Part shown: piece by piece, positions 15,557 to 22,868 of the stretch
Numbering within the stretch: position 1 is the first letter of the stretch
Layout: every line of letters starts with the position of its first letter
Assembly: GCA_022791775.1 (NCBI GenBank)
Contig: JAAVZT010000003.1
Coordinates: forward strand, 103,107-167,106
Source: Bacilli bacterium
Lineage (GTDB): Bacteria; Bacillota_I; Bacilli_A; RF39; UBA660
Length of the DNA stretch: 64,000 bases
Direction of reading: 5' to 3'
Position numbers and translations under genes: made by a program
Notes under the pieces: model-generated
What the model was told of the DNA's origin: nothing
What the model saw: only the letters and a program-made list of their open reading frames with translations
Database searches by the model: none

Positions 15557-15642
15557 GCGAGAATGGCGGAATAGGTAGACGCGCTACTTTGAGGGGGTAG
15601 TGAATTATTTTTGTGAGAGTTCAAATCTCTTTTCTCGCACCA
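15557..15642 (+). tRNA. tRNA-Leu (anticodon GAG), type II with a long variable arm, CCA encoded
   Basis: The acceptor stem GCGAGAA pairs with TTCTCGC. The anticodon stem CTACT/GGTAG carries the loop TTGAGGG, giving anticodon GAG. The T-arm is GAGAGTTCAAATCTCTT, followed by discriminator A and CCA. Confidence 0.85.
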
Positions 15643-15689
15643 GAGAAGAATCTGCTCGAACTTTTATAGTTTTGAGCTTAATGATAAAT

Positions 15690-15719
15690 ATCAATTCTAG
15701 AAATGGAATTGATTTTTTG
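15690..15719 (+). terminator. Rho-independent terminator after the tRNA (ATCAATTC-N8-GAATTGAT + T6)
   Basis: A perfect 8-bp stem with a T-run at 15714-15719. Confidence 0.6.
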
Positions 15720-15748
15720 TTTTGTAAGAAAGTGAGGAGATTCTTAAA

Positions 15749-16024
15749 ATGGTAACAATAAAGAATGAAAAAATCGAAATGGAAGAAGCATTTAAAAATA
15801 AGATAGAATTTATTTGTAGTTTTTGTGGAACTACTCCTACTATTTATAATGGAAGTATAAAGATGATAGAACACACGAATTTGCAATATGTAGAACCTCA
15901 TAGAGTTATTATTAAAGGTGTAACTTTTCTAGCATTTAATTATGAAGCTAATATCTATATTGAAAACTTAAGTAATGCTATTCCACTAAAAGATTTAGAA
16001 GAATATATTAAGTCATTAAATTAA
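15749..16024 (+). CDS. Hypothetical small protein (first gene of the tRNA-adjacent island)
   Basis: 91 aa with an RBS (GAGGAGA). Contains a CSFCG Cys pair. No homology recognised. Confidence 0.35.
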   Translation: MVTIKNEKIEMEEAFKNKIEFICSFCGTTPTIYNGSIKMIEHTNLQYVEPHRVIIKGVTFLAFNYEANIYIENLSNAIPLKDLEEYIKSLN

Positions 16025-16093
16025 AATGATATTTATAAAAATCATTCCATTCTAACAATTGTTTAAGTTTTTCTAATGTGTTCAATATATGGT

Positions 16094-16167
16094 ATTGCAT
16101 ACTTTTTGCAACAATTTTGCAACTTTTTTGCAGGAAATTTGCAACAATTTTGCCTAGACATTGCAAG
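16094..16167. repeat. Cluster of TTGCAA-containing direct repeats (TTGCAACAATTTTGC x2 at 16106-16120 and 16139-16153, plus TTGCAT/TTGCAAG copies) upstream of the serine recombinase
   Basis: A directly visible 15-bp exact direct repeat. TTGCAA is itself palindromic. Confidence 0.6.
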
Positions 16168-16282
16168 TAATACTGGTAAAATAATATATGCTAATAAATA
16201 AATAGCAAATAAATATATTAAATCAATGAACACAAAGGAAAACTCTTTTGTGTTTTTATATTTTAGAAAGGAATTAAATTTT

Positions 16283-19838: not shown

Positions 19839-20549
19839 ATGCAGGAAAGTTTGAAAATTAGTAACGATACAAATATGCAATTATCATATATCAGAATTTT
19901 AAATACTCTATATAATCAAGTGAAAAAAGATTGTGAAGATTTAGATTTAATTGGTTTTAAAGGAATAAAAATAGTTAATGATGATTTATTGAATTCTAGT
20001 TCTGACGGAAATTCAAAAGATAAGCTAATATTATTACCTAAAAATAAAACTGAAAGATACATTTGTGATAGGAAGTATGAGGTGGTAAAATCTACAATTT
20101 ATCATGAACTATGTCACATTGATTTAGCAAATAAATTACCACATTTACACTCTTTACACAAAAAATATATCGAATTAGAAGATTACATTAAATGTTTCAC
20201 AATAATGATTTATATAGAATATCTAGCACATTTAAAAAGTACAAAATATGAAAGTACAGAAAATATCGACAAATTTTTCTGCTCTGTTAACGATAGGAAA
20301 TGGGATTTTAATGATGATTGTGATTGTGTATGGTTTATAAAAGTGTCACCTTATGTCATTGCTAGGGCATTAGATAATAGATTTATTGATAAAGATTATG
20401 TTCAATTGATAGCTGATGAAGATGTAAAAAAACATATTTTAGAAATAAAAGAAATACTTTGTAGTCTACCATCAGAAAATTTAAATGATGATATGAGCAT
20501 ATTAGAAAAATTAGAGAATTATGTAAGTAATTATATAAAAAACGATTAA
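19839..20549 (+). CDS. Hypothetical protein with an HExxH-like motif (YHELCH)
   Basis: 236 aa containing STIYHELCHIDL, a possible metallopeptidase-like site. Otherwise unrecognised. Directly upstream of the CHAT protease gene. Confidence 0.4.
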   Translation: MQESLKISNDTNMQLSYIRILNTLYNQVKKDCEDLDLIGFKGIKIVNDDLLNSSSDGNSKDKLILLPKNKTERYICDRKYEVVKSTIYHELCHIDLANKLPHLHSLHKKYIELEDYIKCFTIMIYIEYLAHLKSTKYESTENIDKFFCSVNDRKWDFNDDCDCVWFIKVSPYVIARALDNRFIDKDYVQLIADEDVKKHILEIKEILCSLPSENLNDDMSILEKLENYVSNYIKND

Positions 20550-20578
20550 ATAGCTGTTTATTCAAGGGGATGAAATAA

Positions 20579-21643
20579 ATGTCATTTGTAACAATTTATT
20601 CAAATAATTTAAAAAGAAAAAAAGAAGAATTAAGTAGATTAAAAAAGGATAGAGTTAGATATGTTGATATAGTTAGTGGATGTAGCAAAAAAATAATTAG
20701 TGCTACTAAACAAGCTAATTCTACTAGATCAACTTCTACTTATAAAAGTAAACTAAATGAAATTGAACGTGAAAATAAGAAAAAATCTGACGCAGAAAAA
20801 AGGCTTGCTGATTATGATAAAAAAATTGCAATAAAAGAAAAAGAAGTATTAGTAGAAGAACAAAAACTGCTGAAAGCACAAGAAAATGAAGGCAAAGAGT
20901 TGGAAAGAGAAAGGAAAAGATCAATCGAAGAAATTAATAAAAATATAAATTTTCAAAGAATTGCTTATGAAGAATTAAATAATGAGATAAAAAAAATGAA
21001 AGAATCAAAAGAAAAAATAAATGTTTTATTTATAGCTTCAAATCCTGATATAGAATTGTTTGATAGTAGTGGGAACTCCTATCAGCAACAAAAATTAAAA
21101 TTAGATAAAGAAGCTAGAGAAATTCATGATTCAATTCAAAAATCATTAAAAAGAGATTCAATTAATTTTGAAACAAGGTGGGCAACTAGAATAACAGATT
21201 TATTTCAGTTTATAAATGAAGTTAATCCAACAATTTTGCATTTTAGTGGGCATGGAACAGCAGATGGAAAATTGGTGTTTCAAGATAATAAAGACCAACC
21301 CAAAACAGTAAATGTAGATACATTAGTTGAGATGATTAATGCTTCATCAGATGATATAAGATTAGTGGTACTAAATAATTGTTTTTCTTCTACTATCTCT
21401 GAAAAAATTATTGATAATATTGAAGCTTCAATTGGAATGAATACTTCAATTGGAGATGAAGCGGCAATTGTATTTGCGTCACAATTATATTCAGCCATTG
21501 GGTTTGGACATTCCTTAGAAAAGGCTTTTCAGCAAGCGATAGTGGCATTGAAATTGTATGAAATACCTGAAACTCAGACTCCTCAACTATTTGTAAATGA
21601 TAATTTTGAGGCAAAAGATATATATTTAGTAGCAAAAAAATAG
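20579..21643 (+). CDS. Coiled-coil + CHAT-domain (caspase-like) protease
   Basis: An N-terminal K/E-rich coiled-coil of ~150 aa. The C-terminal domain has the His/Cys dyad context ILHFSGHG ... LVVLNNCFSS, typical of CHAT/caspase folds. Confidence 0.6.
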   Translation: MSFVTIYSNNLKRKKEELSRLKKDRVRYVDIVSGCSKKIISATKQANSTRSTSTYKSKLNEIERENKKKSDAEKRLADYDKKIAIKEKEVLVEEQKLLKAQENEGKELERERKRSIEEINKNINFQRIAYEELNNEIKKMKESKEKINVLFIASNPDIELFDSSGNSYQQQKLKLDKEAREIHDSIQKSLKRDSINFETRWATRITDLFQFINEVNPTILHFSGHGTADGKLVFQDNKDQPKTVNVDTLVEMINASSDDIRLVVLNNCFSSTISEKIIDNIEASIGMNTSIGDEAAIVFASQLYSAIGFGHSLEKAFQQAIVALKLYEIPETQTPQLFVNDNFEAKDIYLVAKK

Positions 21644-21658
21644 TGAAAGGAGTTAATC

Positions 21659-22696
21659 ATGGATAATAACATAATTAAAAATGAAGACTTATTTGGAAAT
21701 TACTATAACAAAATAAATGAATTAATATTAAAGACAAAACATAGTGTTGCTAAAAATATAAATTCAGAAATGGTAGCATTATATTATGAAATAGGTGCTA
21801 CTATTAATGAACTTATAGAAAATTATCATTTAGAAGCCTCTCAAAATGATATTATAAAAATTTTTTCTGAAAAATTAACTAATGAGTTTGGACAAGGATT
21901 TAGTGTTCCAAGTTTGAAAAAAATGAAAAAGTTTTATCAAGTTTTTCAAGGTGGTTCCACACTGTGGAACCAGTTAAGTTGGAGTCATAATCGTTTAATA
22001 ATGAATATAGATGACGAAAACAAAAGAAATTTTTACTTAGAGGAATCTATAAAATCAAATTGGAGTGTTAGACAATTAGAAAGACAAATTAATAGTTTTT
22101 ATTATGAAAGATTACTATCTACTAGTGATAGTACTAAAAATGAAGTAAAAAATGAGATTAATACTTTGGAAAAGAAAGAAAAGGTAATAGATTTTATAAA
22201 AGATCCATATGTTCTAGAATTTTTAGATATTAAAGATCGAAGATTTTTAGAGAAGGATTTAGAATCTAATTTGCTTGAGCACATATCAGAATTTTTATTA
22301 GAATTAGGTAGAGGATTTTCATTTGTAGCAAGGCAAAGGAGAATAGATGTTGACGGGGATAATTTTTATATAGATTTGGTTTTTTATAATTATGTATTAA
22401 AATGCTTTGTTTTAATAGATTTAAAATTGGACAAATTGACTCATCAAGACATTGGTCAAATGGATTTTTATGTTAGGTATTTTGATAATGAAATTAAAGA
22501 TGAACATGACAATCCAACCATTGGAATAATATTATGCTCTGATAAGAAAGATACAATTGTTAAGTACTCTGTATTAAATGATAATAAAAATTTATTTGCC
22601 TCTAAATATCAACTATATTTGCCAACAGAAAAAGAATTAGCACTAGAGATTGAAAAACAAAAAGCAGAATATAATACTTTTTTGGATAATAAGTAA
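21659..22696 (+). CDS. DUF1016/YhcG-family PD-(D/E)xK nuclease
   Basis: The N-terminus (SVAKNINSEMVALYYEIGATINE) is typical of YhcG. C-terminal FYIDLVFYN...LIDLKLDK matches a PD-(D/E)xK core. 345 aa. Confidence 0.6.
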   Translation: MDNNIIKNEDLFGNYYNKINELILKTKHSVAKNINSEMVALYYEIGATINELIENYHLEASQNDIIKIFSEKLTNEFGQGFSVPSLKKMKKFYQVFQGGSTLWNQLSWSHNRLIMNIDDENKRNFYLEESIKSNWSVRQLERQINSFYYERLLSTSDSTKNEVKNEINTLEKKEKVIDFIKDPYVLEFLDIKDRRFLEKDLESNLLEHISEFLLELGRGFSFVARQRRIDVDGDNFYIDLVFYNYVLKCFVLIDLKLDKLTHQDIGQMDFYVRYFDNEIKDEHDNPTIGIILCSDKKDTIVKYSVLNDNKNLFASKYQLYLPTEKELALEIEKQKAEYNTFLDNK

Positions 22697-22793
22697 ACTA
22701 AAAATTGTAAATTATGAAAAAGTTATTGCTATTTAATTCTTAACTCGGTAAAATATTAGTAGATTTGATATTTATCAGTCTTCTTTTGTTCAA

Positions 22794-22823
22794 GAGTTCA
22801 AAATAGGCTCTGTAATCGCACCA
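22794..22823 (+). repeat. Degenerate copy of the tRNA-Leu 3' end (GAGTTCAAA...TCGCACCA); possible attR remnant
   Basis: GAGTTCAAA and TCGCACCA match the T-arm and acceptor 3' end of the tRNA at 15620-15642; the middle is divergent. Located ~100 bp after the last cargo gene. Confidence 0.35.
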
Positions 22824-22868
22824 AATTGATAGGAAACTCGAACTTATTATTCGAGAGCAATAAATATT

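Follow-up and report, generated by a model that had tools for sequence, protein, structure and literature searches.

A small integrative element at the 3' end of a tRNA-Leu(GAG) gene, probably inserted by its own large serine recombinase

A working rule of the field assigns tRNA genes to tyrosine integrases and protein genes to serine integrases. In a 2017 review of integrative mobilizable elements (IMEs), those with serine recombinases are said to integrate inside genes or with low specificity, tRNA ends being used by tyrosine integrases (Guedon 2017, PMC5704250), and tRNA is not mentioned in the large survey of large serine recombinases by Durrant (2022). Mageeney (2020, PMC7192596) described serine integrases as "not known for targeting tRNA genes", placed 14 of 297 serine-integrase islands at tRNA or transfer-messenger RNA (tmRNA) genes, jointly t(m)RNA genes below, and called for experimental proof; the tree in that paper lists a few such islands, for example Bsu55.8.T, Bam12.9.R and Cdi16.28.Z. 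The Islander program requires a tyrosine integrase and so would not report islands of this kind (PMC7192596). Here we describe a family of elements that runs against the rule, starting from a 7181-bp integrated element at 15643-22823 on the forward strand of a 64,000-nt stretch of contig JAAVZT010000003.1 from a Bacilli bacterium ("the window"; coordinates are those of the whole stretch, and the whole analysis is computational). We read it as a small integrative element that its own large serine recombinase placed behind a tRNA-Leu(GAG) gene, at the 3' end, and we put the probability of this reading at roughly 0.85. We found no earlier description of the recombinase family or of its small partner gene, orf91, in the literature, our coverage of which was incomplete.

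The insertion is polymorphic within the species. A first-pass annotation, made from the sequence alone, had proposed a recombinase-bearing island bounded by the tRNA and by a repeat at 22794-22823, and had asked for a comparison with genomes having an empty site. We retrieved same-species contigs from several samples by the exact sequence of a flanking TadC-like protein, and the comparison was positive. Contigs L002 (SRR27304452) and L009 (SRR27304432) track the window at 99.99-100% identity up to 15642 and resume at 22824. Because they join these two positions, the insert is 15643-22823, flanked by the 8-bp direct repeat TCGCACCA, and the proposed island is upheld. It is carried by L001, L003, L004 and L008, of which L001 is a source-like metagenome-assembled genome (MAG; GCA_965115265.1) 99.93% identical to the window, and the same cargo operon was found in seven more runs, where the contigs break close to the element ends. 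The tRNA-Leu(GAG) gene (15557-15642, forward strand; ARAGORN, Rfam tRNA 50.3 bits) is chromosomal and intact, has the same sequence in occupied and empty alleles, and is the sole tRNA detected by ARAGORN in the window. The neighbouring genes are chromosomal too, with a Tad pilus operon upstream and ruvA, ruvB and queA downstream. The GC content stays near 27% throughout and shows no change in composition at the island.

One further contig, L007 (coverage 2; positions 1703-2414), agrees exactly with the window across the tRNA, orf91 and the repeat array and departs from it at the start codon of the recombinase gene (window-equivalent breakpoint 16287). Beyond the breakpoint it continues into unrelated sequence that turns GC-rich and was seen nowhere else; it is probably an assembly chimera.

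All of the features that the first-pass annotation had listed (the tRNA, a 15-bp repeat, a palindrome, a match to the T-arm and acceptor end, a 577-residue recombinase and the cargo) are present where it had placed them. A repeat search finds TCGCACCA just twice in the 64 kb, once at each end of the island. The left copy (15635-15642, forward strand) closes the tRNA gene, its last 5 bp, CACCA (C72-N73-C74-C75-A76), being the core common to the family; the right copy (22816-22823, forward strand) closes the island. The extended pattern GAGTTCAAA-N-TCGCACCA is found only at 15617-15642, in the tRNA, and at 22794-22823, and in 0 of 100 shuffles. This second occurrence had been taken for a degenerate copy of the tRNA, a decayed attR. 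It belongs, however, to a 50-nt right-end sequence, ATCAGTCTACTTTTGTGCAAGAGTTCAAAATAGGCTCTGTAATCGCACCA (22774-22823, forward strand, running to ...CAAGAGTTCAAAATAGGCTCTGTAATCGCACCA and ending in the right repeat), which at about 90% identity also terminates elements in L011, L012, L013, L016, L020, L028 and L079. Since this arm closes related elements in seven other genomes, 22794-22823 is the element's own conserved arm of attP, the P arm, now residing in attR, rather than a decayed tRNA copy. Its GAGTT motif lies 30 nt from the CCA end, as against 26 nt in the tRNA, and Rfam searched over 15400-26200 returns the tRNA alone, so that the attR arm is not a tRNA and the recombinase leader holds no known RNA family. 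In other lineages the P arm has another sequence, just as well conserved: AAAAAGTTGTAGATAACTACG-N6-GC[AT]CCA.

The left end of the insert (15643-15720, forward strand) is made up of GAGAAGAATCTGCTCGAACTTTTATAG, the P' arm of attP, and behind it two hairpins ending in a T-run, which take the place of the tRNA's own downstream terminator; the AT-rich terminator hairpin behind the arm was read from the sequence, and our terminator scan did not flag it. The P' arm is 94-98% identical in L011, L013, L017-L021 and L073, where the contexts include positions after Leu(GAG), Leu(CAA), Leu(TAG), Thr(CGT), Arg(CCG) and Phe tRNA genes, and it is 90% identical behind the tmRNA gene of L012. It is also found directly behind the end of a preceding element. 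Its family consensus is TCTGtTCGAACT.

To place the element among its relatives, we scanned a genome collection with a full-length recombinase homologue (P0007) and obtained 80 loci from gut MAGs labelled Bacilli, Tenericutes, Mollicutes or Clostridia; 67 of them have at least 700 bp upstream of the recombinase and are informative. A same-strand t(m)RNA gene ends less than 1.5 kb, and typically about 600 bp, upstream of the recombinase start in 49 of the 67, and in every one of these linked relatives the encoded CCA is followed at once by the first base of the element. The targets belong to 14 t(m)RNA species, among them Gly(TCC) (15 loci), His (nine) and Thr(CGT) (five), as well as Leu (CAA, TAA, TAG), Tyr, Arg, Asn, Cys and a tmRNA. 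Since the loci contain 86 t(m)RNA genes per 1.01 Mb, adjacency by chance in this fixed orientation and interval would be expected at a few percent. Most of the other loci are explained by tandem arrays, in which the P arm of a preceding element replaces the tRNA, or by an insertion between orf91 and the recombinase gene. The earlier caveat that the adjacency to the tRNA might be coincidental is thus refuted, and the pattern across these loci argues that the recombinases are a dedicated tRNA-end integrase family.

The sole recombinase in the insert is a large serine recombinase encoded on the forward strand at 16283-18146. It has an N-terminal resolvase domain (Resolvase, PF00239, 1e-35, residues 29-175 of a 596-residue open reading frame, ORF) and, toward the C-terminus, a Recombinase domain (PF07508, 2e-18) and a zinc ribbon (Zn_ribbon_recom, PF13408, 1e-5, 26.0 bits against a cut-off of 25.3), the two parts by which large serine recombinases are recognized. 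The YTRVSTEDQ motif is present, and the catalytic domain matches the TP901-1 integrase at 3e-22. The 577-residue ORF called at 16283-18016 is there as first annotated, although it is a truncated form: homologues have 610-637 residues, and their C-terminal tail is encoded in the next frame of the window, where the last ~41 codons run to 18146.

How such an enzyme might find so many different tRNA genes can be proposed from the att sequences. We compiled 22 attL/attR pairs. Counting back from the end of the encoded CCA, position -5 is always C and position -4, the discriminator base N73, always matches between the two ends, whether it is A, T or C. Because positions -5 to -1 are identical in all pairs while position -6 differs in five, the shared core is C72-N73-CCA. 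Between them, the P and P' arms form an outer inverted repeat, AAAAAGTT...AACTTTTT, that has its centre at C72. Anchored at the junction, the tRNA consensus is ggGTTCGAtTCcc...GC.CCA and the P arm consensus AAaAGTTgtAgATA...TcGC.CCA; that of the P' arm, as its reverse complement, is AAAAAGTTCGAACAGATACGTC. An RRGTT motif stands 30 nt from the CCA end in all of 41 P arms, as against 26 nt in the tRNAs. When C72-N73 is taken as the centre, the P arm has the sequence GTT(C/G)(G/T)A at half-site positions 19-24, the P' arm has it at 18-23 and the tRNA arm at 15-20. In the LI integrase the motif for the zinc-ribbon domain is at 16-24 in attP and at 11-19 in attB, an outward shift of 5 bp (Rutherford 2013, PMC3783163), and the outward shift of the GTT motif fits this attP/attB model for serine integrases. 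The 5-bp core and the dyad symmetry of the attP arms likewise agree with the short att sites of such enzymes, in which attP and attB have minimal identity around a 2-bp crossover.

We therefore picture integration as follows, in terms that remain those of a model. The island's own large serine recombinase would recombine attP on the circular element, ...AAGAGTTCAAAATAGGCTCTGTAATCGCACCA|GAGAAGAATCTGCTCGAACTTTT..., with attB at the 3' end of tRNA-Leu(GAG). This attB would comprise the T-arm and the 3' strand of the acceptor stem, which form the left (B) arm of attB and of attL, together with the encoded CCA and whatever comes next. In the attB half-site the enzyme would take GTTCGA, a near-universal sequence of the T-loop, for its zinc-ribbon-domain motif, and it would meet the counterpart motif in both attP arms about 4 bp farther from the centre. 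The tRNA would stay intact since the shared core is just C72-N73-CCA and the element lands behind it, with the element supplying its own hairpins to terminate transcription of the tRNA. The crossover dinucleotide is most likely C72-N73, and a crossover there would explain why each element lineage is restricted to tRNAs with a discriminator base matching its attP. The CCA is the sole part of the core invariant in all lineages, and a universal dinucleotide would be the simplest account of many different tRNA targets, so we also considered a crossover within it, at C74-C75 or C75-A76, the match at N73 then reflecting a binding preference rather than identity of the central dinucleotide. We regard this as unlikely, however, as a centre in the CCA would misalign the conserved outer motifs of the two attP arms by 5-7 bp, compared with 0-1 bp for C72-N73, and N73 matches in 22 of 22 pairs.

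Two other routes to an island beside a tRNA gene have to be weighed against integration by the resident serine recombinase. Since tyrosine integrases classically target tRNA 3' ends (Mageeney 2020, PMC7192596; Guedon 2017, PMC5704250), such an enzyme might have acted in trans, with the serine recombinase carried as a passenger. We consider this very improbable: a search of every ORF of the island and of the relics behind it found no domain of the Phage_integrase family, the identity block is just 5-8 bp, and in about 50 independent genomes the module of recombinase and orf91 keeps a constant distance to the CCA junction, the arms being conserved along with it. That the element is a mobilizable transposon like Tn4451, of low target specificity and beside the tRNA by chance, has in its favour that relatives bear Mob_Pre relaxases and sometimes TnpV, as Tn4451 does. 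Landing by chance is nevertheless refuted by the family-wide site pattern, with 49 of 67 relatives at tRNA or tmRNA CCA ends and most of the others behind another element of the same kind, and we give it hardly any credence.

Integration by the element's own recombinase is thus the account that we prefer, although several observations weigh against it or against its details. A search with degenerate patterns for the attP junction expected of an excised circle, P arm joined to P' arm (...GGCTCTGTAATCGCACCA|GAGAAGAATCTGCTCG), gave no matches in two scans of the metagenome contigs of the Joint Genome Institute (JGI) or in one scan of IMG/VR. The 22 att pairs are phylogenetically non-independent; the outward shift of the attP motif is about 4 bp here instead of the canonical 5; and the right half of attB has no clear conserved motif in genuine chromosomal flanks. 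The gene itself is damaged, in that an extra A in the A-run at 18007-18012 (A6) shifts the frame by +1, brings the stop at 18016 and cuts off the last ~41 residues. L001 has the same extra A, whereas L092 (SRR30218829), which carries the same element, has A5 and an intact recombinase of 618 residues, and L011 likewise has A5 and an intact gene. The A6 run may be a real inactivating mutation, in which case this copy is perhaps immobile, or a homopolymer error of sequencing or assembly. That the island entered by way of its serine recombinase and is now a fixed relic, unable to excise for want of those residues, would agree with the truncation shared by L001, with the absence of a relaxase gene that most relatives have, and with the failure to find the circular junction. 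We are nonetheless doubtful of it, given the intact gene in L092, a one-base homopolymer difference that could be an assembly error, and the coexistence of occupied and empty alleles at 99.9-100% flank identity, which points to recent movement.

The clean ends of the insert do not mark the end of the mobile DNA. Behind it, from 22824 to about 24400 (forward strand; Pfam and sequence comparison), lie the decayed relics of older elements of the same kind, one or two in number; in the "empty" contigs these relics stand directly behind the tRNA. From 22824 onward they comprise a P'-like arm (AATTGATAGGAAACTCGAAC...), a frameshifted relic of a Mob_Pre relaxase gene (23096-23574, forward strand) and an internally deleted recombinase fragment (24157-24384, forward strand) with remains of the region upstream of a recombinase. 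No further CCA-ended arm that might serve as the right boundary of the relics was found across 22824-33000. Judged from these remains, the window is itself a tandem array, the "empty" allele being the tRNA plus old relics and the newer element having been inserted on the tRNA side. Past the relics, 25088-30993 encodes a 295-residue protein of no known kind, an ABC transporter resembling BceAB together with its two-component system, and an editing protein of the YbaK type; ruvA comes next.

Among the relatives, loci lacking a nearby tRNA are mostly tandem arrays too, in which one element's P arm gives way to its successor's P' arm (L011, L014, L015, L019, L038, L057, L072). Such arrays may mix lineages of the family at one tRNA, as at L067 (814-11659), where a His-type element lies behind another element after tRNA-His, at L026, at L030 and at L011 (5106-16335). 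Accretion at these tRNA sites appears to be common.

Between the P' arm and the recombinase gene lies orf91 (15749-16024, forward strand), which encodes a 91-residue orphan protein. It is directly upstream of the recombinase gene in 67 of the 80 relatives; seven others lack upstream sequence and five have an intervening insertion. Its 615 homologues are all unnamed and have no Pfam hits, and a structural search with an AlphaFold2 model (pLDDT 87.7) gave no convincing match. The orf91 product and the recombinase lose identity in parallel, from about 90% to about 35%, and orf91 is a candidate for a recombination cofactor or directionality factor.

The repeats upstream of the recombinase gene, together with a palindrome downstream of it, had been offered as possible attachment sites. 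Both lie inside the insert, with the junctions at the tRNA end, so neither is an att site; the att site is the tRNA's 3' end. The repeats form an array of TTGCA (16095-16165, forward strand), with five copies at an exact spacing of 11 bp (16095, 16106, 16117, 16128, 16139) and a sixth at 16161, and the exact 15-mer TTGCAACAATTTTGC occurs twice within it, at 16106 and 16139, against 0.01 expected by chance. The array is kept in L011, L012, L014, L015, L018-L020 and L073. Its sixth copy overlaps the -35 box of a sigma-70-like promoter (TAGACA-16-TAAAAT with a TG before the -10 box; 16155-16182, forward strand), the other five being upstream of that box. This probable recombinase promoter shares the top score of our promoter scan (10/12) with three other sites, is alone among them in having the upstream TG, and aligns with TTGACA-16-TAAAAT in relatives. 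The scan for terminators places a hairpin with a T-run in the leader (16228-16255, forward strand), between the promoter and the ribosome-binding site and start codon. A hairpin and T-run occupy the same position in most relatives inspected, the distant L033, L043, L055 and L067 included, with a sequence that varies by lineage; none is evident in the short spacer of L068. This arrangement suggests control by attenuation or antitermination, and the repeats, promoter and leader terminator taken together look like elements for transcriptional control of the recombinase rather than att sites.

In L012 (~970-1620), L014, L017, L018 and L020, the interval between orf91 and the recombinase gene holds up to four different arrays of short repeats spaced at about 11 bp (TTGCA, TTACAG, ATTTAGT, TACCA). 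Behind each array stands a promoter-like box, TGATAATATGGTAtTGTA, which gives the appearance of a stack of regulated promoter modules upstream of the recombinase in those relatives; the window has the TTGCA module alone.

The recombinase gene may itself become a target. Another element, about 3.7-4.7 kb long and encoding a serine recombinase of its own of 616 residues, sits precisely within the resident recombinase gene in L013 (5268-10015), L016, L021 and L028, and probably in L056. It is inserted between the codons of ...T-R-V and S-T-E in the motif of the active-site serine, with GTG or TG duplicated at the junctions, and it looks like a parasite of a parasite that targets conserved coding sequence for a catalytic motif. 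At the equivalent position (16322-16324) the recombinase gene of the window is uninterrupted.

Downstream of the recombinase gene is a spacer (18147-18463, forward strand) with the 16-bp palindrome TTTCGCAAGTGCGAAA, which occurs once (18241-18256; expected 0), two copies of the palindromic TGTATATACA and a variant of the latter. The 346 nt at 18017-18362, comprising the frameshifted tail of the recombinase gene and most of the spacer, are about 84% conserved in L011 and L013, neither of which has a relaxase gene, whereas relaxase-bearing relatives have a different region, resembling an origin of transfer (oriT), in the position of the spacer. The spacer could be an operator or an alternative oriT.

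The cargo consists of five co-oriented genes (18464-22696, forward strand): a hydrolase of the beta-lactamase fold (18464-19381; Pfam), a zinc deaminase (19392-19829; Pfam, with a marginal PADLOC match), a 236-residue protein with no family hit and the HExxH motif YHELCH (19839-20549), a coiled-coil protein with a CHAT protease domain (20579-21643; Pfam, with weaker PADLOC matches to PDC-S66 and SAVED_CHAT) and a YhcG/DUF1016 nuclease of the PD-(D/E)XK type (21659-22696; PADLOC PDC-S02, 422 bits). PDC-S02 and PDC-S66 are candidate PADLOC systems and not validated ones. Apart from the YhcG nuclease, which has homologues in L018 and L037, the cargo is without counterparts in the relatives. With an HExxH protein between the zinc deaminase and the CHAT protease, the operon may be an uncharacterised multi-enzyme defence system, and the genes of the island are likely anti-phage.

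In most relatives the gene after the recombinase encodes a Mob_Pre (MobV) relaxase of about 460 residues, with an oriT-like inverted repeat in front of it. Among 115 ORFs downstream of the recombinase at 39 sampled loci, we counted 24 Mob_Pre and four TnpV proteins; others include parts of CBASS systems, STAND NTPases, restriction-modification genes, Abi_2 and BrxA/B. Phage structural families are absent from the 25 most-hit Pfam families of these ORFs (73 families were hit in all). Pfam and NCBIfam detect no relaxase gene in 15643-22823, and L011 and L013 are also without one. Held against the definition of an IME, the element has its own module for integration and excision, with the recombinase next to attL and both ends defined, and has no relaxase of its own. 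The family backbone consists of the P' arm, orf91, a regulated promoter with a leader terminator, the recombinase, usually Mob_Pre, variable cargo and the P arm, and on its gene content the family is one of small integrative mobilizable elements with what we predict to be mainly defence cargo.

One family thus brings together an empty site, junctions at tRNA ends in about 50 independent cases, arms of attP that are conserved, and a recognition model that can be tested. For annotation, it means that tools demanding a tyrosine integrase miss tRNA islands that have none. For the spread of defence genes, it means that tRNA genes of uncultured gut bacteria accumulate tandem stacks of relatives, which carry CBASS, STAND NTPases, restriction-modification, Abi and BREX parts, and for genome engineering, a serine integrase with its attB at a tRNA end would have a native site in many hosts. 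We would go further only tentatively, as we think the following somewhat less probable than its opposite: a deep clade of large serine recombinases, whose members come from uncultured gut Bacilli and Clostridia and range down to about 40% identity, may use the universal tRNA T-arm, acceptor end and CCA as attB, with the discriminator base as half of the crossover dinucleotide and the 91-residue orphan as an obligatory partner, a directionality or target-selection factor. If so, a single base change in attP would retarget an element to another set of tRNAs, any CCA-encoding bacterium would possess a natural landing pad for a serine integrase, and a class of tRNA islands would have stayed hidden from tools that look for a tyrosine integrase.

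Several described systems resemble these elements in part. Tn4451 and Tn4453, clostridial mobilizable transposons (TnpX, the Mob/Pre relaxase TnpZ, and TnpV), are likewise small (~6 kb) Firmicute elements moved by a single large serine recombinase, and the relatives reported here carry Mob_Pre and TnpV. Tn4451 differs in integrating with low specificity (Guedon 2017, PMC5704250) and in lacking orf91, whereas the present family is found strictly at tRNA and tmRNA CCA ends; the copy in the window lacks the relaxase. In a plasmid database the best match to the recombinase is just 31% identical, and orf91 has no match there.

The ssrA islands of Dehalococcoides, with the CcrB-like recombinase DsiB, are integrative mobilizable islands at the tmRNA 3' end, have a short direct repeat of that end and accumulate in tandem (McMurdie 2011, PMC3146451). 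L012 is also at a tmRNA gene, and tandem arrays are common in our family as well. The Dehalococcoides islands, however, have ssrA as their one fixed target, are flanked by a 20-bp repeat and are inferred to insert in the T-loop; they also have DsiA, a small serine recombinase beside DsiB, and a six-gene module. The family here uses 14 t(m)RNA species, has a 5-bp core (8-bp repeat in the window), inserts after the CCA, and has a single recombinase with a 91-residue orphan partner. The recombinase of the window scores 134 bits against the CcrB model, whose cut-off is 900.

The serine integrases of phages (A118/LI, Bxb1, phiC31, TP901-1) have the same domains, and their attP, like the one proposed here, is longer than attB and has its outer motif farther out, in keeping with the LI model (PMC3783163). 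They target protein genes or intergenic DNA, whereas the elements here target an end of structural RNA genes that is common to many genes, and, judged by the 25 most-hit Pfam families described above, these elements are not prophages. The elements also recall the tRNA islands of tyrosine integrases, of the type reported by Islander, which also occupy the tRNA 3' end, leave the tRNA intact, have a direct repeat at the far end, form tandem arrays and carry defence cargo. The enzyme of those islands is unrelated, and their identity block measures tens of bp as against 5-8 bp here, where the repeat at the far end is the element's own and not a copy of the tRNA.

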